A stretch of DNA of 64,000 nucleotides from Candidatus Thorarchaeota archaeon. GTDB taxonomy: Archaea; Asgardarchaeota; Thorarchaeia; Thorarchaeales; Thorarchaeaceae. Shown here one piece after another: positions 1 through 47,347 of the stretch. The position numbers were made by a program, and so were the translations under genes. Position 1 is the stretch's first letter; each line of letters starts with the position of its first letter. The DNA lies in assembly GCA_004524445.1 (NCBI GenBank), contig SDNP01000014.1:1-64000 (forward strand), in the 5' to 3' direction. Below the pieces are notes generated by a model. That model made no database searches. It saw only the letters and a list, made by a program, of their open reading frames with translations, and was not told where the DNA came from.

Positions 1-468
1 CAATAGGTAGACCGCCTGAAACAGGAAACGCGGCGTTTATTCATGAAATGAGAAAAGAAATAAACAGCATTTCTAGTCGATCTAGCAGGAGCTCTATTGT
101 TAGGCATTGGTGCACCTTTTCTTGTTGAACCTCTTTATCTGATTATATGCCATACAGTGAGAGAACTGGATAGAAACCATTCCTTGCAATCGGAGATAGA
201 GAAATGAAAATAGTCTTTGGGTTCTTTGGGTCCGCCTTTCTGGTTGGAGTTGGTTTAGTCATAATCCTCCTTAATACGACGATTATGAGAGAATGATTTG
301 TCAACCCAAGGTAGTCCATTTGGACTCATTTCTATCTCATCTTGGTGTTGTTTTTGCTGAACATATGTCGAGTTGATATTCAGATTCCGAACTAGTTAAT
401 CATAAAAGATAATTGAGAAGAGAGGCTAGTTCTTCTCTTCTCTTTCTAATACCAACAGATTGTAAGAA

Positions 469-37614: not shown

Positions 37615-39171
37615 TCAGTCTTCATCCTCCTGTTGCTGATGCATACGCCAAGACAGGGTTAAGGTCTTCGGATGAGCTGCCCGATATTCGTCAAGTAATC
37701 CAATGGCTGTGGAATGAGGTGCTACCTTTACCTTTTCGGGTTCATCATATGCCTCATCCGAGATTTTTTGATACACCGCAATCATATCATCGAGACTATC
37801 TTTCGTTTCAACTTCAGTAGGCTCTATCATTAGCGCTTCATCAACAATGAGAGGGAAGTAGACAGTGGGGGCATGTATGCCATAATCCAGCAATCTTTTG
37901 GCGATATGCTTTGCAGTTACCTCAGTTTCATCCTTCATTTCCTCAGCTGAGATTACGCACTCATGCATCCGTGGAGCGTTTTGGGAGTAAGGCAGTGTAA
38001 AACCGCGTATTTTGCTGATATGTCTCGCAACATAATTGGCATTGAGAACAGCTGCCTTAGAGGTTGCAAAAAGGCCATCTTTCCCTAGAGCATAAATGTA
38101 TGAATAAGCCCTGACAAGTACACCGAAGTTTCCGTAGAAGCCGTGTACCTTGCCAATCGAGTTTGGAAGATCGTAATCAAGAGTGAAAATACCATTCTCA
38201 TCTCGCCGTATTCTAGGTACAGGAAGGTATTCTGCAAGTTTTTCTTTGACGCCAACCGGTCCTGCCCCGGGGCCTCCACCACCATGCGGAGTTGAAAAGG
38301 TCTTGTGCAAATTGAGATGTACTACATCAAAGCCCATATCTCCCGGACGTACAACACCCATAATTGCGTTGAAGTTTGCACCATCATAGTAAAGCAAGCC
38401 ACCTGCATCATGAACAATTCCCGCTATTTCAGCGATATCCTTCTCAAAAACACCGATGGTATTGGGATTGGTAAGCATCAAACCAGCAGTCTTTGGGCCA
38501 GCAACCTCCTTCAGGGCTTCAATATCAACTCTTCCTTCATCATTAGATGGAATGACGACAACCTCATAACCAGCCATGGAGGCAGATGCTGGATTAGTTC
38601 CATGCGCAGAATCTGGAATCAGCATCTCATTTCTCTGGTCGCATTCATCGGACACACATTTGTGGTATTCTCGAATTACGAGGACGCCAGTAAGCTCACC
38701 TTGAGCGCCTGCGGGAGGCTGAAGAGTAACTGCATCCATGCCAGTTATTGCACCTAACCATTTCTCGAGTTCCCACATCAGTTCAAGGGCACCCTGTGTT
38801 GTAGATGTGTCCTGATATGGATGTAACCTTGCAAAGCCCGGAAGGGACGCAGCCCAATCATTCTCAGCAGGATTATACTTCATGGTACAGCTTCCCAGAG
38901 GGTAAGTACCTTGACTCACTGAGAAGTTCATCTGGGATAGCCTAGTGAAGTGGCGGACAATGGTGGGTTCAGATACTTCAGGAATGCTCGGAGGGCTTTT
39001 TCGTTTCATCACAGATGGAATCACTGAATCGAGATTGCCGACCACATCTTGAATTGCTGGTGGGATTGCTGGAAATTGATGTCCAATAACTCCTGGACTC
39101 GTCTTCTCAAAGATAATAGGCTCGCTCCATTTGGCTTGCCGATACTTTTCAGAACTCGGTTTGTTTGACAT
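37615..39171 (-). CDS. gcvPB: Glycine dehydrogenase subunit 2
   Basis: YPLGSCTMKYNP, SAHGTNPASA, HLNLHKTFSTPHGGGGPG. Confidence 0.96.
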   Translation of the reverse strand: MSNKPSSEKYRQAKWSEPIIFEKTSPGVIGHQFPAIPPAIQDVVGNLDSVIPSVMKRKSPPSIPEVSEPTIVRHFTRLSQMNFSVSQGTYPLGSCTMKYNPAENDWAASLPGFARLHPYQDTSTTQGALELMWELEKWLGAITGMDAVTLQPPAGAQGELTGVLVIREYHKCVSDECDQRNEMLIPDSAHGTNPASASMAGYEVVVIPSNDEGRVDIEALKEVAGPKTAGLMLTNPNTIGVFEKDIAEIAGIVHDAGGLLYYDGANFNAIMGVVRPGDMGFDVVHLNLHKTFSTPHGGGGPGAGPVGVKEKLAEYLPVPRIRRDENGIFTLDYDLPNSIGKVHGFYGNFGVLVRAYSYIYALGKDGLFATSKAAVLNANYVARHISKIRGFTLPYSQNAPRMHECVISAEEMKDETEVTAKHIAKRLLDYGIHAPTVYFPLIVDEALMIEPTEVETKDSLDDMIAVYQKISDEAYDEPEKVKVAPHSTAIGLLDEYRAAHPKTLTLSWRMHQQQEDED

Positions 39172-40568
39172 TAGTCTATACCTCCGGGTTGAAGAATTTC
39201 TTCAATGATTTTCGCTAGTTCATCAATTGTTTCTTTATTATGCATCTCAGTGACACTCAGCAACATTGACTCGCCTAAATGTGGAAAGTCTTCAGACAAT
39301 AAACGCCCACCATGGAATCCCTCAGAGAGGAGCTTCTTGTGAACTTCTGTCGCCTGAGCATTTTCAAATCGAATAACGAAATCCTGCCAGATGCTACTGC
39401 CAATAGCCGGAGCCGTCACACCTGAGATATCATTCAGTATCTTTGCGGCGTAATGAGATTGGTAGGCAATGTTTTTACTTAATTCCTGAATCCCATTTCG
39501 GCCAAGTAACGATGTGTATATCGCCGCTGTGACAGCCATGAGAGCTTGATTGGTGCAAATATTGCTGGTCGCCTTTTCGCGCCGAATATGTTGCTCTCGA
39601 GCACTCAAGGTGAGAGTATAACCCTGTTCATAAGGCTCTTCTTCTGTTCTTGTAAGGCCTACAAGGCGGCCAGGCATTTGGTAGACCAGTTTTCTCTCCA
39701 TTTTACATCCAAAGACGCCCAATAGAGGACCTCCATAACTCATGTCGATCCCAAGAGGCTGTCCCTCCGCAATCACAATATCAGCATCGTAATCCCCTGG
39801 CGGACGAAGCAGACCCAGTGATAGAACGTTAACACCAACCACCAAGAGGGCACCCGCTTCATGTACTAGTTTGGATATGTCATCCACTTGTGTTTCTATG
39901 AATCCAAGGTATGACGGATTTTCAAGATACACTCCTGCAACATCTTCATCCAATTTGGCATCCAAATCAGATAGTGACAGTAGGCCCGTGCCTTTGTCAT
40001 AATCAATTTTCTCAAGAGTGATATCTGCAGGTTCCGCGTATGTCTTGGCGACTTGGTAGTGCTCCGGTTTTATTGTTCCGGGAACCAAGAATTTTGATGA
40101 CCTCTTGACTCGCGATGCCATCCTTAATGCTTCACCTAGACTCGTAGCCATGTCATACATGCTACTATTTACAACATCCAAATCCAGAATTTCTGCCAAC
40201 AGACTCTGATACTCAAAAAGAGTCTGGAGCATGCCCTGACTTATTTCGGCTTGATATGAGGTATAGGATGTAACAAACTCTGATCGAGATGCTAGAGACT
40301 TCACTACTGCCGGGACATAGTGTATTCCGGCACCGGCGCCGAGGAATGATCTCCCATCCTCCGTTAGTGCATTCTTTGAGGCTAGTTCTTTGAGCCGCTT
40401 TGTAACCTCCATCTCTGAATGGGGGCGTGGAAGGTCTACCTCCTTGTGCAGCCTAAGTTTCTCAGGTACATCTCTGAATAGCTCGTCGATATCGTCCAAT
40501 CCAATCGAGTTCAAAATATCTTCTTGGGAGTCATCTGTCATTGGAATCCAGGGGTGTTTATAGCTCAT
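39171..40568 (-). CDS. gcvPA: Glycine dehydrogenase subunit 1
   Basis: TSYTSYQAEISQG, REQHIRREKATSNICTNQ. Confidence 0.96.
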   Translation of the reverse strand: MSYKHPWIPMTDDSQEDILNSIGLDDIDELFRDVPEKLRLHKEVDLPRPHSEMEVTKRLKELASKNALTEDGRSFLGAGAGIHYVPAVVKSLASRSEFVTSYTSYQAEISQGMLQTLFEYQSLLAEILDLDVVNSSMYDMATSLGEALRMASRVKRSSKFLVPGTIKPEHYQVAKTYAEPADITLEKIDYDKGTGLLSLSDLDAKLDEDVAGVYLENPSYLGFIETQVDDISKLVHEAGALLVVGVNVLSLGLLRPPGDYDADIVIAEGQPLGIDMSYGGPLLGVFGCKMERKLVYQMPGRLVGLTRTEEEPYEQGYTLTLSAREQHIRREKATSNICTNQALMAVTAAIYTSLLGRNGIQELSKNIAYQSHYAAKILNDISGVTAPAIGSSIWQDFVIRFENAQATEVHKKLLSEGFHGGRLLSEDFPHLGESMLLSVTEMHNKETIDELAKIIEEILQPGGID

Positions 40569-40717
40569 GTTGGGTATCACCAGGTTGATTAGCTACTTGT
40601 GGATGCGAGAGGCCATCCCAATAGGCTTTTTGATTTGTAGCTTCATTGAACAGTCGGGCTTGGAATTGTTTTTAAGTGCTAAGAAGATGACCCGAACGAC
40701 TGGAGGTTGCGTACAAG

Positions 40718-41038
40718 ATGAAACGCTGGTTGATGGATATTCTTGCTTGCCCCGCAAAAGATTGTAGAAGTGAGCTGGGCTTGGAGGTGTTCGAGTCTCA
40801 TGACATCGAAACAGGAGACGGAACTGTTGAAGAAATCGATGCGGCACTGATAACTTGCCCAAAATGCGGAAGATGGTATCCAGTCATTGATGGCATAGCA
40901 TGTATGCTACCGGATGACCTCCGAATGGAAGGAAAACAACGCAGAGAAGAAACTGCCTTTCTTGAGAATTGGAAAGGAAAGATAGACGACGATATCCTTG
41001 AAAATGGCATGCCTTTTGGTCTGCAACCTGAAAGCTAA
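40718..41038 (+). CDS. Trm112-like methyltransferase activator
   Basis: LMDILACP..C, CPKCGRWYPVIDGI..ML. Confidence 0.88.
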   Translation: MKRWLMDILACPAKDCRSELGLEVFESHDIETGDGTVEEIDAALITCPKCGRWYPVIDGIACMLPDDLRMEGKQRREETAFLENWKGKIDDDILENGMPFGLQPES

Positions 41039-41069
41039 AATGTAATTCTCCTTTCGCATGTAGTAACTT

Positions 41070-41145
41070 AGCCCCGTAGTGTAGTGGTCCAGCATAAGGG
41101 GTTTTGGTCCCCTCGACCCAGGTTCAAATCCTGGCGGGGCTACCA
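41070..41145 (+). tRNA. tRNA-Gln(TTG), intronless, encoded CCA
   Basis: AGCCCCG/CGGGGCT acceptor (A1-U72), AGGGG-TTTTGGT-CCCCT, CCAGG-TTCAAAT-CCTGG. Confidence 0.95.
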
Positions 41146-41155
41146 CTTTCTTCTG

Positions 41156-42019
41156 TCATTCACCGTCTGACCGACTCACAGGCGGCTCGGGCATATCACC
41201 ATGATGATCCACATGAAGCCGCGTGATTTGGGATAGCACCAACCGATCCCCATTGACAAGAACTTCAATATTGATGTGGTCATCAAGGCCACTAGTGGAT
41301 AGCTTCTTGACAAGGACAGCTTCAACTTGGAAGACGCCCGCTGGATTATCCATTGCAACTGTTATTCGCAAAGGCTTGTCGTCACCCTTCTCAAGGATTA
41401 CATTATTGATAGCCATTGCGCTGACACTATGTATGTCAACCTTCCCTTGGTGGAAGGGGACCATCGTTCTGCCCTTGGTCATGTCACATCCATCACCGAT
41501 TTTCGTTATTCCTGCTTCAAAGGTAAGACAGGGAGTGTCATCATCGTGGGCATAGATTCCGTGAAGAATTGCAGACAGGATGTCCGTCGCTTTTGCAGAG
41601 TCATCATAGATTTGCTCCAATTTCGGTTCTAGAATAGGAGCAGAGAGCTGAATGGCTGCTTGGTAATGTTCCTTTCGATGAATAACCATTCCTAGATCAT
41701 GTAGGTATGTAGATGCCAATACAACAAGGCGAGCATCATCTGTATCGCCAATACCTTCAGCAACAACATTGGGCATGAAGGCTTCGTCCAAAATCGTGAA
41801 GGCTTGAAGTGCATTCCAAGTAGCAACTTCTGCATGAATGGGTCCGTGGTCAGTATACCCTAGTCTTGAAACGGCCATTCTATTAGCAGTTCGTAGATAG
41901 GACTGAACTTTGGGTGAACCCGTTAGATATTGATACATCTCCAGTGCTTTCGTTCCGGTTTCGAGCAAGTCTCTTGCCTTTACCTTATCTCTATCCAAAA
42001 CAGATTGAGTTTCAGTCAT
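41156..42019 (-). CDS. HD-superfamily phosphohydrolase (COG3294-like)
   Basis: YTDHGPIHA, YLHDLG, DGCDMTKGR, IHSVSA. Confidence 0.88.
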   Translation of the reverse strand: MTETQSVLDRDKVKARDLLETGTKALEMYQYLTGSPKVQSYLRTANRMAVSRLGYTDHGPIHAEVATWNALQAFTILDEAFMPNVVAEGIGDTDDARLVVLASTYLHDLGMVIHRKEHYQAAIQLSAPILEPKLEQIYDDSAKATDILSAILHGIYAHDDDTPCLTFEAGITKIGDGCDMTKGRTMVPFHQGKVDIHSVSAMAINNVILEKGDDKPLRITVAMDNPAGVFQVEAVLVKKLSTSGLDDHINIEVLVNGDRLVLSQITRLHVDHHGDMPEPPVSRSDGE

Positions 42020-42094
42020 GTAATCAGTCCCCGAAGGGACAATTAGGTGTTACAGTGACTGTGATAAGGATTGCGAAGGAGGAAGGGAGGCTAG

Positions 42095-45043
42095 TTATAG
42101 CTCTCCAGCTTCCTCTTGCAGGGATAGGAGAATTCTATCTGTTGCACTAGTGGCTTTTTTGATTGTGTTCAAGTAGTCCTGTCGCGATTTCTCGAATGCA
42201 ACCCGACTAATCCTCTGCTTTTTCCTACGAAGCAATAGTTGACGAAGGCCAGCTTTGGCTCCTTCGATTTTCTCGTTCTGGAGCTCGAGCTGAGAAACAA
42301 TGTCACGGTATTTAGTACCATACTCAATCAATTTGTCCTTGAGTTCTGGTAGTTTATCATCAATTTCCTCTAGCTGACCCTTTATCTCTCGCTCTCTTAT
42401 CATATACTCCTTTTTGCTGACTTTACCTCTTCTTCGCGATGCCTCCAGCTTCTCAAGATCCATATTCAGTGAGATACGCTTAGAATATGCATTGGCGAAC
42501 TCAATCAAGAGGCCAGGCGGGGCCCCCGTCTGCACCCTTTGTTGCTCCTTTTCTTCGACTTCTGAAGGAGGAGTTCCTCCCGGCTCAATTACAGATCTCC
42601 GTGATAAGATGTAGGCTATTCCAATAAAGCCAAACAGAAGAGCAAACACGAAGGGTCGAGCGGCGATTCCAATGGAGAGTTGATATATCAGGTTGATTTC
42701 CGCAGGATTCTTTTCAGTAGTGTTGTATATCTCATAACGCAAACGTGTATCAAATATCCCAAATAGAAGTCTATAATCACCTTCAGCCTCTATTGCATTG
42801 ACTGAGGGCGGCATTGCAATGTCTACGATATGCTTTGTTATCAGTATATCACCAAGAGTTACAAAGGGGAATTTTATGCGGTTTCCAGAAGAGACACCAC
42901 TCTGATATTCAGAGAGTTGAATTGTGTAATCCATCTGGAAGGTGTAAGTGAATCCCTTGAAGAAGCCCTCTGGACCGAATCTGTCCTTTCTTAAATCAAG
43001 GCCGATAGGTATTGTTTCATTAGATGCCCATAGCTTAGGCTGTGAATCTGCCAGAATTCCTACCTCATCGTAGATGGAAATTGTGTCGACATATGCTGGT
43101 GCTTCAAGATCAAATTCATTCTGTTTTGCCGGTCCAAGATTGCGAAAAGTGATTGTTTCCTCATAGGAAAGCCAACCCCATGGATCCATTGTAATCTTGG
43201 TATAGCGATCAGCGACTATGAACGGAGTAAATGATCTAATCTCCATTGTAAATTCTTCAATCGTCATGGGAGATATGGTTTTCCAGTTTCCGGATGGTGA
43301 TTTTCCACTCAACGAATCGCCACTTCTGAACTCGATTGACAACTGAGCGCTTCGTAATGGATATGGTAGCACAGGATATTTGAGAAAAGTGATCTCGTAG
43401 AGGTTATCATCGAATACCGTCAACTCATGCAATGAATGCAAAAAGGTGGTCATTGTGAATCTATAGGTTCCACCAAATCCAACAGGTGATGGTAAATAGA
43501 CTCTCCACCGTAGCATAGTATTTGTATCACTAAGTCGAATGACTTTAACCTCTTCTTCTTCCGAATCTGTTGCAGAGGTGGAGAGAAGGTAGGTTTCCCA
43601 TTTCAGAGGCAATACTACATCAAAAGCGGTAATGGGCGCAGAACCGTTGTTAGTAACAGTATAATCATCTTGGATCTCGGTAGTATGATACTCTCGAGTG
43701 TACAGAGTTCGAGATACATCCAATCTCATTCCCTGAAGGGGGATGAAAGGCCAAACTACAGTGATATTGACGTGGGTCGTTGTATTGTAGTTGGAGGCAT
43801 CAGTTGCTTTGAACCAGATTGTATAATTGCCCGCCTCATAATCGGTAAGGTCTAATCGGTATTCCCACAGGTCTGTTTGAAAATTATGTGATATATCAGT
43901 CCAGTTCTCATCATCCACTTTATAGTAGGTTCGTCTGACGAAACTATTGTCAGTGACATTTACTTCGAGTTCAACAGACCAAGATACCTCTTGATTCGGA
44001 GCAGGGGATAGGATGTCAATATGTGGTGCTGTGTTTGTTTCTATCGTTGCCTGGGGAGAATCAACCCAACTTGAATGCTGAACTGGCAAATCTCGAATAT
44101 CTTCAGTATTGGCGAACAAGACTGTAAGTGGATACTGCAGGTCAGTTGCATTGAGAAGGGGGATGCCTTCTGTACTATTCATATTAATGGCGTATTCGAC
44201 TTGTGTACGTATTCCGTCATCGCGTGCATTAGCGGACAGAATTCTTCCTTGATCCGTATAAGGAAGGTGCTGGTATGTGCTGATACCATAATCATATCTA
44301 TAGTCGATTTCATTTGCATCTGCAGGATTGTCATAATTGTCTTCAATGCGCTGGAGAGTGATTTCGTACTCTAAGTCATAACCGTAAAGAGGATGGTCCT
44401 CTTGATTATATGCATCCTCAGCAGGGATGATGAAGTGTCTTACCTCGCCAATACGCATCCCAATTATTTGATTCTTGTACTCTTCAAGAAGCTGTTCCTC
44501 TGATATCGGAGTATCGGATGAGTCATCAGGTACTTCTCCTTCCTCAAGTATCGTGCCATTTCTTGTCTTCAGTACATAGTGCACCGTGACTGCTTCAGAA
44601 CCCGTCACTCTCACAATATCCTCATGAGGTGTGCCAGGGGCATAGCCGTAAATTAGGTCACTACGGTTAAGTCCGTCTATACCGAATGAGTCCGTGTAGT
44701 TTTTCCAACCAAAACCAATCCAGCCATTTGTGGAGGCTGACAGTCCGACATAGAGAATGGATGAATTATGTTCTAGATACACTTCTACACCTGTTATGGG
44801 ATCAGTGTAGGATGCTGCATATTCTGTGGGGTCTATTATGCCATCAGCAAAACCATAATGGGCATCGACATACGGAATGGTAACGTTTGTGAATGTCTGG
44901 GCCAGAGATGGTTGTCGCTGATCTATATTGTTGACTGTATTGGGTTCAGTAGTAACATTACTGGAATCAAGCGCCACGAAGCAGCTTGTTAGCATCAGTA
45001 CTACCAGAGCCATTGTTGCTATTCTTCTGTGCAGCATACTCAA
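42095..45043 (-). CDS. Ribophorin I (Ost1)-like protein with N-terminal DOMON-like, FKBP PPIase and Ig domains; TM and cytosolic helical bundle
   Basis: Signal peptide; LYVGL..GWIGFGW (DOMON); VTVHY..GMRIGEVRHFIIPAEDAY..HPLYG..L.YEI (FKBP); Big-type Ig; RTL..DDYTV.N and KITMDPWGWLSYEETI.FRN (ribophorin I-like); TM; coiled coil. Confidence 0.8.
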   Translation of the reverse strand: MSMLHRRIATMALVVLMLTSCFVALDSSNVTTEPNTVNNIDQRQPSLAQTFTNVTIPYVDAHYGFADGIIDPTEYAASYTDPITGVEVYLEHNSSILYVGLSASTNGWIGFGWKNYTDSFGIDGLNRSDLIYGYAPGTPHEDIVRVTGSEAVTVHYVLKTRNGTILEEGEVPDDSSDTPISEEQLLEEYKNQIIGMRIGEVRHFIIPAEDAYNQEDHPLYGYDLEYEITLQRIEDNYDNPADANEIDYRYDYGISTYQHLPYTDQGRILSANARDDGIRTQVEYAINMNSTEGIPLLNATDLQYPLTVLFANTEDIRDLPVQHSSWVDSPQATIETNTAPHIDILSPAPNQEVSWSVELEVNVTDNSFVRRTYYKVDDENWTDISHNFQTDLWEYRLDLTDYEAGNYTIWFKATDASNYNTTTHVNITVVWPFIPLQGMRLDVSRTLYTREYHTTEIQDDYTVTNNGSAPITAFDVVLPLKWETYLLSTSATDSEEEEVKVIRLSDTNTMLRWRVYLPSPVGFGGTYRFTMTTFLHSLHELTVFDDNLYEITFLKYPVLPYPLRSAQLSIEFRSGDSLSGKSPSGNWKTISPMTIEEFTMEIRSFTPFIVADRYTKITMDPWGWLSYEETITFRNLGPAKQNEFDLEAPAYVDTISIYDEVGILADSQPKLWASNETIPIGLDLRKDRFGPEGFFKGFTYTFQMDYTIQLSEYQSGVSSGNRIKFPFVTLGDILITKHIVDIAMPPSVNAIEAEGDYRLLFGIFDTRLRYEIYNTTEKNPAEINLIYQLSIGIAARPFVFALLFGFIGIAYILSRRSVIEPGGTPPSEVEEKEQQRVQTGAPPGLLIEFANAYSKRISLNMDLEKLEASRRRGKVSKKEYMIREREIKGQLEEIDDKLPELKDKLIEYGTKYRDIVSQLELQNEKIEGAKAGLRQLLLRRKKQRISRVAFEKSRQDYLNTIKKATSATDRILLSLQEEAGEL

Positions 45044-45234
45044 TATTAATCACCGATTGCCATCTAGGGTGCTAGCTCACGTAGGCGTGACACCTAGAAC
45101 GATGCGCTCCAGCTTCGGGTCGGTTAAAATAGTTTCTGTTAGACTAGTTGATGTACAACAGGAAAGAACGTCTTTCGTCCCGAAAAGTGTAAATTGGATA
45201 TGGAAGACGAGGATGTAATGAGGAGAAACACATC

Positions 45235-46272
45235 TTGCTGAATATCATACTGGCATTTGCTCTATCGTCACTTGTCGTCATTGGCGCAATGCCGACAATT
45301 ATTAAGATGCTTGAAGAGAAGAAAATGTGTGGAATAGACGTACACAAACCCGAAAAACCTGAAGTGCCCAAAGGAGCTGGGTTCATACTCCTCTTCGCAA
45401 TAGTAGGATCGCTCTTATTCTGGATAGGGATTACAACATTTCAAGCCCAGCAGGTTGTTAATCCGGGGCTTCTAGCGGCACTTGTATCGATTCTTATGGC
45501 AGGAATGATTGGGCTTCTTGATGATAACTTCGATTTCAGGAATAGAACGAAGGTTCTGCTTCCGCTAATAGCATCCATACCCATGATGGCCATGCAAGTA
45601 GGGGTTTCTAAAATGACTATTCCATTTATCGGCACTCTTGATCTTGGACTTGTCTATCCTCTCATCATTGTTCCCCTCATGATGACCTTCATCATCGATT
45701 CCACGAATATGTACGGTGGGATGAATGGGCTCGAAGTAGGATTGGCTGTTGTGAATTCGTCAGCCATTGTTGTGTTCATGTTGTTGTCGCCCAGCTTTAC
45801 AGGAGTGCCTTTGAACCAAGGACAGACTGATGCGGTCACCATTGCTGCCGCTCTTCTCGGTGGATCCATTGCATTCTATATTTATAATCGATATCCAGCG
45901 AAGGTGCTCCCAGGAGATGTCGGAAGACTGCCTCTTGGAGCAACAATGGCTGCAGCACTCATACTTGGAAACATGGATAGATTGGCAGTTTTCCTTTACA
46001 TCACATTCATGGTTAATTTCTTAATGTACCTCGGCTATCGAATATATGTTAAGAGGAAAAATAGCGAGTGGGCGAAATTTGCGGATGTGCAGGAGGATGG
46101 CTCTCTGGAAGTAGTGGGGCCGTTCACGATGTACTGGCTCTTTCCTTGGCTGCTGGGTGGTATAGACGAAAAGAAAAACGTCATCATTCTCATAACGCTA
46201 CAAGCAATCATAGCATATTCAGCAGTTGTCCTACTACTGGTCGGTATTCCGTTGGGCATAGGATGGATTTGA
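45235..46272 (+). CDS. aglH: UDP-GlcNAc:dolichyl-phosphate GlcNAc-1-phosphate transferase (AglH/Alg7/DPAGT1 type)
   Basis: GIDVHKP..PEVP..AG, GLLDD, NMYGGMNGLE, YNRYPAKVLPGDVG. Confidence 0.88.
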   Translation: MLNIILAFALSSLVVIGAMPTIIKMLEEKKMCGIDVHKPEKPEVPKGAGFILLFAIVGSLLFWIGITTFQAQQVVNPGLLAALVSILMAGMIGLLDDNFDFRNRTKVLLPLIASIPMMAMQVGVSKMTIPFIGTLDLGLVYPLIIVPLMMTFIIDSTNMYGGMNGLEVGLAVVNSSAIVVFMLLSPSFTGVPLNQGQTDAVTIAAALLGGSIAFYIYNRYPAKVLPGDVGRLPLGATMAAALILGNMDRLAVFLYITFMVNFLMYLGYRIYVKRKNSEWAKFADVQEDGSLEVVGPFTMYWLFPWLLGGIDEKKNVIILITLQAIIAYSAVVLLLVGIPLGIGWI

Positions 46273-46294
46273 CTCGGGACCTGGGTTTGGTATT

Positions 46295-47347
46295 TCAAAT
46301 GATTTTAGCTGGTAGATACGAGTCAACAACAAAGTCCATGCCATGACGACTAAAGGCCTGTTGTTCAGCCTTCTTTCGAATATCCTTGAATTTCAGTATA
46401 TGATTCTGCCAATATGCTGTCTGGTATCGAGGGTCAAGAGATAGCTCATCTAACCGTTTGAGATCGGAATCACTCATTTTCTCAGTAGGCAAATCATATT
46501 CTTCTATATCTCTCGCGGTAACTCCAATCCATTCAGCATCAGGAACAGCCAAGTCAGAAATGTGTGCTGCATTTGCGCTCCCCGCCATGATTACTCTAGC
46601 AATATGAAGACCCCACGGATCTCCATCAGTGAATATATAGACGGGCAGATTCAAATCACAATGAAGGCGTTTCAGGAGATTACGGGTTGATCGGGGAGCC
46701 TGCCCGCCAAGGTGTACAAGTACTGCTCCAAATTTTTCCCAACAGCGGGTTTCAATCAAGCGGGAGAATATTCCTCCTGATTCCACCGCTAGAACTAGGT
46801 CAGCCTCTGTTTCGACCAGTTCTGCAGTCATTAGAGCAGCTCCAATTGGAAGCCCATCAGGACTGGTGGTCAATTCTATCTCCTTGCCCTCGTAGCCTGG
46901 TACTGTATACTGCATTGTAACTTGCCCAAAAATCGATGAGTGCTCTTCGGGAAAAATGCCCAAATCCTCTCTGGAAAGACCGGTAAGACATTCCAAGTCA
47001 GATACTATTCGATCTGATTCTGATTGGTCCCTAAATTCGACCCCAAAGGCCTCGCTGGAGTAGTAGAGGTCTCTAAGAGAACTAGTTCTGCCTGTTTCAA
47101 GCAGCCGTTTTGTATAGGATGCAACCCAGAGTAGTTTCGAGAAACTACTTACATGTCGCAAATTCCCCGAGTCTCTAACAACCTTTGATTTTCCTAGTCT
47201 GAAGCGTTTTGAAACTGGATCATAGCTCATGTTGTCAGTACTTCGATCGCTAAGCTCCAATGTTGGGAATTGATGATTTCTAACAGAGGTGATTATATCT
47301 TCGCCGATATTCCTAAGAAGTGTGATTCTGGGGTCAGTTTCAGTCAA
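46295..47347 (-). CDS. top6A: DNA topoisomerase VI subunit A
   Basis: LRDLYY catalytic Tyr, TOPRIM VE and TDGDPWG, KKAEQQA; start refined to TTG 47347. Confidence 0.93.
   Translation of the reverse strand: MTETDPRITLLRNIGEDIITSVRNHQFPTLELSDRSTDNMSYDPVSKRFRLGKSKVVRDSGNLRHVSSFSKLLWVASYTKRLLETGRTSSLRDLYYSSEAFGVEFRDQSESDRIVSDLECLTGLSREDLGIFPEEHSSIFGQVTMQYTVPGYEGKEIELTTSPDGLPIGAALMTAELVETEADLVLAVESGGIFSRLIETRCWEKFGAVLVHLGGQAPRSTRNLLKRLHCDLNLPVYIFTDGDPWGLHIARVIMAGSANAAHISDLAVPDAEWIGVTARDIEEYDLPTEKMSDSDLKRLDELSLDPRYQTAYWQNHILKFKDIRKKAEQQAFSRHGMDFVVDSYLPAKII

Follow-up and report, generated by a model that had tools for sequence, protein, structure and literature searches.

A probable thorarchaeal OST1/ribophorin I carrying a DOMON(FKBP)-Ig head, encoded divergently from a predicted AglH/Alg7-type transferase

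The first 64,000 nucleotides of contig SDNP01000014.1, from the Candidatus Thorarchaeota archaeon assembly GCA_004524445.1 (2.79 Mb in 64 contigs, about 90% complete), encode on their reverse strand a 982-residue protein that appears to be a full homologue of OST1 (ribophorin I, or RPN1), a subunit of the oligosaccharyltransferase (OST), with an elaborate N-terminal head. This stretch is the window to which the positions below refer. The gene lies head to head with that of a predicted sugar-1-phosphate transferase, called GT4 here. The open reading frame (ORF), its length of 982 aa and the 191-bp divergent gap had been proposed in an initial annotation made from the sequence alone, and the coordinates bear them out (Table 1). 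A GGTGAT Shine-Dalgarno match stands 5 nt upstream of the TTG start codon and is kept in the orthologous loci. Because intact, stop-free, full-length orthologues are present in 74 of 76 genomes of the same family, the gene is not an assembly artefact, and we rule out both a chimera and a pseudogene. Public records name these proteins "FKBP-type peptidyl-prolyl cis-trans isomerase" or "Ig-like domain-containing protein"; since the names cite FKBP or Ig only, the OST1 identity has been missed.

Table 1. Coordinates of the genes, protein domains and intergenic elements at the locus.
Feature	Position in window	Strand	Basis or remark
HD-domain phosphohydrolase-like gene, 287 aa	41156..42019	(-)	downstream of OST1, same strand, 75-bp gap
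OST1/ribophorin I fusion gene (probable)	42095..45043	(-)	982-aa ORF; start codon TTG at 45043, stop codon at 42095-42097
Cytosolic four-helix bundle, residues 843-982	42098..42517	(-)	homologous to the OST1/RPN1 ribosome-binding domain
Transmembrane helix, residues 791-816	42596..42673	(-)	AF2 helix; hydropathy; sequons all before it
OST1 membrane-proximal luminal domain 2, residues 607-790	42674..43225	(-)	orthologue Pfam Ribophorin_I matches here, profile 250-367
OST1 luminal beta-sandwich domain 1, residues 436-606	43226..43738	(-)	RPN1/Ost1 alignments begin at model 432-437; canonical Asgard OST1 from query ~441
Ig-like domain, residues 339-432	43748..44029	(-)	Pfam Big_7; VIA-align
DOMON-superfamily beta-sandwich, C-terminal half, residues 238-338	44030..44332	(-)	aligned ranges reach model 287-289
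FKBP-fold domain nested in DOMON, residues 141-237	44333..44623	(-)	Pfam FKBP_C; VIA-align
DOMON-superfamily beta-sandwich, N-terminal half, residues 52-140	44624..44890	(-)	VIA-align matches span model 1-289
N-terminal hydrophobic signal peptide or anchor (putative), residues ~4-27	44963..45034	(-)	AF2 helix 4-19; hydropathy window 7-25
Intergenic gap OST1/GT4	45044..45234		191 bp exactly
OST1 Shine-Dalgarno	45049-45054	(-)	conserved block
GAACGATGCGC block	45097-45107		conserved; between TAAAATAG and OST1
TAAAATAG, candidate TATA box of OST1	45125-45132	read on (-)	conserved
CCGAAAAGTGTAAAT, candidate BRE/TATA of GT4	45180-45194	(+)	conserved
GT4 gene, divergent partner	45235..46272	(+)	345 aa

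Structural comparison makes it very probable that residues 436-982 constitute a complete OST1/ribophorin I. We built a full-length AlphaFold2 (AF2) model on 36 orthologues, with a mean predicted local distance difference test score (pLDDT) of 80.7. In it a hydrophobic helix is followed by a disordered linker to about residue 50, a beta-rich region (53-335), an Ig domain (340-430), two beta-sandwiches, a transmembrane (TM) helix, a further disordered linker and a four-helix bundle (843-979). The pLDDT is 85-93 across the luminal sandwiches and the TM helix and falls below 50 for residues 1-50, which include the low-confidence linker after the N-terminal helix. A Foldseek search of the PDB is led by eight RPN1/Ost1 chains, from 8b6l_O at 2.3e-29 to 6c26_1 at 5.8e-17, and the first other fold, that of integrins, follows at 2e-11. 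By VIA-align, the model matches human RPN1 and yeast Ost1 with Z 27-32 (model 432/436-975 against RPN1 residues 28-607), and with Z 27-31 over model 432-825, the part that holds the two luminal sandwiches and the single TM helix; the best unrelated match has Z 13.6. The cytosolic bundle, conserved better than any other part of the family, aligns over 141 of 142 residues with the cytoplasmic domain of OST1 from 'Ca. Prometheoarchaeum syntrophicum' MK-D1 (PDB 8WHN; Z 17.2, root-mean-square deviation (rmsd) 2.2 A). The MK-D1 domain binds ribosomes, as shown with human ribosomes (PMC11417166), and homology suggests that the bundle described here would do so too.

Profile searches lead to the same family. 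The profile of the 36 thorarchaeal orthologues matches the MK-D1 chain (8whn_A) at 1.2e-8, and a mixed profile of thorarchaeal C-terminal halves and canonical Asgard OST1 proteins matches it at 2.7e-35. The mixed profile also finds human RPN1, whose chain is named 'Dolichyl-diphosphooligosaccharide--protein glycosyltransferase subunit 1', at 2.4e-39 over profile positions 34-571; this match covers nearly all of the human chain. Yeast Ost1 is found at 8.8e-17. Canonical Asgard OST1 proteins are matched by the query itself at up to 1.8e-47. Pfam Ribophorin_I (PF04597) is reached by 11 of the 36 orthologues, at up to 5.5e-8 and at or just above the 25-bit cut-off, and by 16 of the 23 members of the mixed set. 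The ribophorin-I-like luminal domains, TM helix and RPN1-like cytosolic bundle that the initial annotation had described are upheld by Foldseek, VIA-align and profiles. Searching the genome with this query brought up no second OST1 homologue, the remaining matches being to the Ig domain only. A search of the whole genome with PF04597 also returned nothing, which is little informative because the same model was silent in all 14 control genomes.

The head in front of this body is a composite of three domains. Residues 50-338 were folded separately (pLDDT 91.3, predicted template modelling score 0.88) and compared exhaustively, by VIA-align, with 48,161 PDB representatives. The top matches belong to the DOMON superfamily: the gamma subunit of ethylbenzene dehydrogenase (2ivf_C, Z 15.8) and NxrC (7b04_C, Z 14.7), followed by the DBH DOMON domain (4zel, Z 13.1), the cytochrome domain of pyranose dehydrogenase (Z 12.8), CBM9 (1i82, Z 12.7) and the cytochrome domain of cellobiose dehydrogenase (1d7c, Z 12.4). 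Each of these six covers model positions ~1-289, with 139-171 positions aligned. FKBPs match model ~92-188 only, which corresponds to residues 141-237; SlyD (Z 12.1), FKBP2 (Z 11.3) and FKBP11 (Z 10.3) superpose there with an rmsd of ~2.1 A over 84-92 residues. It is this difference in span, with DOMON matches running through the whole model and FKBP matches confined to its middle, that makes the description of an FKBP inside a DOMON-like domain correct. Pfam FKBP_C (PF00254) covers residues 149-230 at 1.3e-7 (32.2 bits against a cut-off of 21.1) and is matched by 32 of the 36 orthologues. An ESM Atlas cluster that is 100% PF03351 has a TM-score of 0.52 to the head, and Pfam DOMON (PF03351) is found in 3 of the 36 orthologues (best 3.2e-4). 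The third domain gives a Pfam Big_7 match at residues 340-409 (4.6e-9) and resembles the Ig-like module of 6tn6 over model 338-432 (Z 13.6). A nested FKBP followed by an Ig domain had been read from the letters alone, with the FKBP placed at ~44345-44620; Pfam and structure confirm the arrangement and set the insert at 44333-44623.

We checked the canonical FKBP pocket residues, which in FKBP12 numbering are Y26, F36, D37, F46, V55, I56, W59, Y82 and F99. In an alignment to FKBP2, Y26, I56, W59, Y82 and F99 correspond to Y156, L186, Y189, Y212 and Y226, which are conserved in 35-36 of the 36 orthologues; L185 is less so. Since the aromatic pocket residues are kept so consistently, the built-in foldase proposed in the initial annotation is plausible, but three other pocket positions have changed (see below). 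In the DOMON part (residues 50-140 and 236-338), the residues conserved at 85% or more include His62, His92, His259 and His323 but neither Met nor Lys; many Asp, Glu, Tyr and Trp residues are conserved as well, along with Gln and Arg. Haem-binding DOMON domains use Met/His or Met/Lys axial ligation. The lack of a conserved Met or Lys, and with it of either pair, makes a cytochrome-type (haem b) DOMON unlikely, the ligand positions being taken from the literature. The DOMON may instead bind a glycan or Ca2+ or play a purely structural part.

The topology expected of an OST1 fits the distribution of glycosylation sequons. All 16 N-x-S/T sequons of the protein are found N-terminal of the TM helix, the tail having none, compared with 6.8 +/- 2.3 in shuffles of the ectodomain. 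Eleven of them are kept in at least 29 of the 36 orthologues, three of these in all 36. The ectodomain is acidic and free of cysteine. Because the sequons are confined to the part before the TM helix, and because of the composition of the ectodomain, the sequence fits an N-out, C-in, N-glycosylated surface protein.

The head is an addition made within one order. Among the 301 genomes sampled from the phylum, the full-length architecture is found in the 74 family genomes mentioned above and in the one genome that represents a sister family of the same order, whose 1018-aa ORF has 34% identity. All other Asgard families match only query ~441-981, with ORFs of 580-630 aa and E values of 1e-20 to 1.8e-47. 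As they match the body only, the head is an order-specific extension of an Asgard-wide OST1, and the fusion a lineage-specific trait, not one that is Asgard-wide or ancestral to eukaryotes. The conservation of the architecture that the initial annotation had wished to see is thus present, within these limits.

A profile of the nested module was also run against 1.84 billion representative proteins and gave 11 matches at E <= 1e-30, of which eight cover nearly the whole of its 291 positions in one stretch. Among them are OST1-type proteins (~975-986 aa) and fragments, the rest being three clusters of proteins 567-586 aa long. The proteins of these clusters have a signal peptide, DOMON(FKBP)-Ig, an extra Ig/PKD-like domain and a C-terminal TM anchor, and no OST1 body. 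Paralogues of this standalone type, 586-595 aa long and with a Ser/Thr-rich linker, were also seen in some relatives (L054:1839-3596, G299 contig 125; L055:1833-3617, G182 contig 23); no standalone head was found in the present genome. In a quick tree the standalone heads cluster together and are nested among the OST1 heads of the family, with modest support (SH-like approximate likelihood ratio test, SH-aLRT, 60-93), which hints that they may be secondary duplicates of the OST1 head.

The product of the divergent gene matches Pfam Glycos_transf_4 (PF00953) at 4.9e-29 (101.8 bits against a cut-off of 27) and is the single PF00953 match in the genome. The closest solved relative is human DPAGT1, at 1.6e-16 (63.5 bits), as against 1.4e-8 (37.4 bits) for MraY. 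By sequence it is a polyprenyl-phosphate sugar-1-phosphate transferase of the AglH/Alg7 (DPAGT1) type, as initially annotated; other AglH proteins have complemented yeast alg7 (PMC8993221). All 27 family loci with flanking sequence keep the two genes head to head, 173-211 bp apart, and the sister-family locus also has the pair, so that the proposed synteny holds in 28 of 28 loci of the order. As these genomes are kin, the 28 loci are one conserved arrangement, not 28 independent events. More independent support for the linkage comes from other Asgard families, in which a GT4 homologue lies within ~6 kb of a canonical OST1 in 12 of 19 loci, representing six families, with the two genes arranged head to head, on the same strand or convergently. 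The role of archaeal OST1 in N-glycosylation has been questioned (PMC8993221); the recurrence of an OST1-AglH linkage across Asgard families supports a real one.

Genes near OST1 and GT4 in the other Asgard genomes include those for DUF354 (GT-B-like), a hexapeptide acyltransferase and a GFO/IDH/MocA oxidoreductase, which by sequence look like sugar-modifying functions. DUF354 (PF04007, with a weak LpxB-like GT-B signal) stands beside GT4 near OST1 in three families (L034, L037 and L045) and may be a second glycosyltransferase in the making of the lipid-linked glycan; it has no match in the present ~90%-complete genome. We do not equate DUF354 with the Agl24 family, as the Agl24 paper does not use the word DUF354. 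Also in other Asgard genomes, a Trm112p-like protein of 208-216 aa, with a large insert between its zinc-ribbon halves, is encoded directly downstream of the canonical OST1 in one family (f9; L045:7148-7771, L046:5294-5941).

An alignment of 27 orthologous intergenic regions brings out two distinct conserved promoter-like blocks in the 191-bp gap, about 55 nt apart and one for each gene (Table 1; BRE, transcription factor B recognition element). The simplest reading of these sequences would be two promoters, not one shared element. The two genes may be co-regulated, as the initial annotation proposed. A conserved block of ~25 nt, GAACGATGCGC..C.A.C.TTC.GG (45097-45119), stands in the presumptive 5' untranslated region of OST1, flanked by its putative TATA box on one side and its Shine-Dalgarno sequence on the other. 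An Rfam scan of 40500-46500 found no family in the gap, only a tRNA gene and two sub-threshold matches. Counts from a sigma-70 style promoter and terminator scan equal the shuffle expectation, the model not being applicable to archaea.

Of the other OST subunits, STT3/AglB and OST3/6-like were the two searched for in the genome, and both were found. The one STT3/AglB, of 925 aa and with the motif WWDYG, is encoded on contig 30, and the OST3/6-like match lies 3.6 kb from it. We predicted a complex between AglB residues 30-780 and OST1 residues 605-835, each chain with its own separate alignment. The interface score (ipSAE, interaction prediction score from aligned errors) reaches 0.65, 0.65 and 0.64, while the highest of three controls scores 0.00; the mark used for this score is reached by 58 of 80 solved complexes and by 2 of 110 mismatched pairs. 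The runs share at least 80% of their contacts, with a partner pLDDT of at least 74. In the predicted complex, OST1 residues 618-701 and 764, in the membrane-proximal domain, contact AglB residues 62-64, 125, 129, 519-543, 563-565 and 726-729. The prediction of a complex with AglB that the initial annotation had suggested thus passes its controls, perhaps through likeness to solved OST complexes, and a contact between OST1 and AglB has in-silico support only.

Of the remaining neighbours, the HD-domain gene downstream of OST1 is more conserved than OST1 itself, with 70-84% identity in each of the 30 loci of the family and 45% in that of the sister family. Its assignment comes from a weak Pfam HD match (0.012) and from Atlas HD clusters (0.98), and no glycosylation role is evident. 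A tRNA gene on the forward strand (41070-41142; Rfam RF00005, 62.8 bits) lies between the HD gene and the next ORFs, and a Pfam search of window 40593-40862 on the reverse strand gave no match. OST1 is two genes and this tRNA away from gcvPA/gcvPB (window 37615-40580), and the AglB gene adjoins gcvT, an aminomethyltransferase-like ORF (contig 30 of this genome, G000; L051:15-725 and L051:1390-4164). Each half of the glycine-cleavage genes has a half of the OST machinery for a neighbour, perhaps by chance or perhaps because a single locus was once split.

Taken together, we consider it fairly probable that the best explanation overall is a thorarchaeal OST1 with a folding-helper head at the OST/translocon, while for the folding-helper role of the head, taken by itself, we put the chances at about even. 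OST1 would here be a non-catalytic subunit that couples AglB/STT3 with the ribosome translating at the Sec translocon. Its four-helix bundle, in the cytoplasm, would dock the ribosome, as homology suggests, and its two beta-sandwiches would stand outside the membrane, with the membrane-proximal one predicted to pack on AglB. The order-specific extension of ~400 residues would reach further outward, as an Ig spacer and then a DOMON domain that carries the FKBP in a loop. The head may in this way hold an FKBP-type peptide-binding site, acting as a chaperone and possibly as a prolyl isomerase, where secreted chains emerge and get glycosylated, so that folding help would be wired in cis into the translocon/OST. 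The most likely part for the DOMON would be that of a scaffold or of a module binding a ligand other than haem, perhaps a glycan or Ca2+, and the GT4 enzyme encoded next door would start the lipid-linked glycan. A precedent for such a location is FKBP11, which binds the ribosome-Sec61-OST-A translocon in human cells (PMC12804085).

Several observations weigh against parts of this proposal, and some of them would suit a protein that has left the OST complex and become a ribosome-tethered or membrane-anchored surface chaperone, with the ribophorin fold kept as a stalk. In single-sequence Pfam/NCBIfam searches the protein alone matches neither Ribophorin_I nor DOMON. The hidden Markov model scan that had been proposed for three families thus returns FKBP_C directly and the other two through orthologues, profiles and structure, and the sequence link to RPN1 depends on orthologues or on the mixed profile. 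The genes for AglB and the OST3/6-like protein are on a contig other than that of OST1, with no operon-level link to it. The AglB prediction used alignments of our own making, and, because eukaryotic OST complexes have been solved, its score may reflect likeness or memory. Residues of the predicted interface show no significant excess of conservation over the remainder of the domains (permutation p 0.12 for OST1 and 0.26-0.63 for AglB), and the TM helix is absent from the confident contacts. Moreover, membrane-anchored standalone heads exist in some relatives, with a plain C-terminal TM anchor, and the head can therefore work without the OST1 body. Against a departure from the complex stand the failure of the genome search to turn up any other OST1 homologue, the cytosolic bundle's place as the part conserved best in the family, and the conserved pairing with an AglH-type gene, which recurs between OST1 and GT4 in six other Asgard families. 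We regard such a departure as very improbable, the least likely of the explanations considered here.

The function of the head leaves more room for other readings. Three of the pocket positions differ from canonical FKBPs: F36 is replaced by L/I, F46 by S/T, and D37 by Q in 28 of the 36 orthologues and by E in 8 (E in this protein), with a conserved E168 next to it. Because of these changes, prolyl isomerase activity may be weak or lost. It is possible, if unlikely, that the protein is an OST1 as described above whose FKBP is a non-catalytic docking module, permanently bound to a proline-containing segment of some other protein of the surface or translocon, with the head as adaptor or scaffold. 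The altered pocket would agree with this, and the strong conservation of the remaining pocket suits a fixed partner as well as it suits catalysis. The adaptor reading is a serious one because, in FKBP11 at the human translocon, the canonical site is buried by CCDC134 and an isomerase role is doubted by the authors, who favour an adaptor (PMC12804085). It is weakened by the lack of a candidate partner, as no conserved secreted or membrane neighbour besides GT4 was found. A distinctly improbable alternative puts the DOMON at the functional centre, binding a glycan, metal or small ligand and sensing or capturing N-glycans or envelope sugars where glycosylation takes place, with the FKBP as a structural insertion only; this corresponds to the possible lectin of the initial annotation. 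The fold does match CBM9 with cellobiose (Z 12.7) and the putative carbohydrate-binding 4jpq (Z 11.5), and the residues conserved in the DOMON part are Asp, Glu, Tyr, Trp, Gln and Arg, not the Met or Lys of haem ligation. The top fold matches (2ivf_C and 7b04_C) bind haem, however, and the fold alone therefore does not pick the ligand; in addition, the FKBP pocket is conserved at least as well as the DOMON surface.

It is tempting to speculate that both domains act on the same substrate, with the DOMON binding a fresh N-glycan and the FKBP acting on the neighbouring polypeptide. We hold this combination of lectin and foldase in one chain to be a long shot, slightly less likely than a DOMON-centred head, and the lectin idea and the parallel with quality control in the endoplasmic reticulum (ER) are speculation by analogy. 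If true, it would be glycan-dependent folding help in an archaeon, with the logic of calnexin and malectin, inside a ribosome-docking OST subunit. In the mammalian ER, malectin is a carbohydrate-binding module associated with ribophorin I; it is a separate protein with a fold different from that of the DOMON head.

For the folding-helper head at the OST/translocon that we favour, the wider interest lies in OST1 itself. OST1 is a "eukaryotic signature" translocon protein of Asgard archaea, and even in eukaryotes its role beyond ribosome docking is poorly understood. A fusion of OST1 with an FKBP is a hint in the style of a Rosetta stone that the OST/Sec exit site is where folding helpers belong, a theme that has only recently been seen structurally in humans, with FKBP11 at the OST-A translocon. 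As the fusion is restricted to one order, it has no direct bearing on the eukaryotic ancestor. The soluble head (residues ~50-435) is experimentally tractable. Asgard OST1 is known; no description of the DOMON(FKBP)-Ig extension was found in the literature searched, though one may exist.

Among known systems, the Asgard OST1 of MK-D1 (PDB 8WHN; PMC11417166) is like the protein described here in that the full body, residues 436-982, matches. Canonical Asgard OST1 proteins differ in being without the DOMON(FKBP)-Ig head, and share 20-30% identity over the common body. Eukaryotic RPN1 (human 8B6L chain O and 6S7O chain E) and yeast Ost1 (6EZN chain A) have the same two luminal beta-sandwiches and one TM helix, and RPN1 also the cytosolic four-helix bundle. 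Identity to them is only 13-16%, and the matched chains are without an N-terminal extension, their alignments beginning at chain residue 25-29. The members of the DOMON superfamily to which the head was compared (4ZEL, 1D7C, 2IVF_C and 1I82) differ from it in that here a whole FKBP sits in a loop and no Met/His or Met/Lys pair for haem is conserved. The insert itself is closest to the ER-luminal FKBP2 (FKBP13; 2pbc, 3.4e-6, Z 11.3) and to the prokaryotic FKBPs of the SlyD/SlpA type (SlyD 3cgm, Z 12.1, 29% identity). SlyD-type proteins carry an "IF" chaperone domain inside the FKBP, whereas here there is no IF domain and the FKBP is itself the insert. Human FKBP11 (PDB 9YGY/9N9J; PMC12804085) offers a parallel that is one of analogy, not orthology. 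In both cases a membrane-tethered FKBP faces the exterior or lumen at an OST-containing translocon; FKBP11 has a TM anchor of its own and comes to the translocon in trans, as a protein in its own right, whereas here the FKBP is a covalent part of the probable OST1, nested within its DOMON domain.

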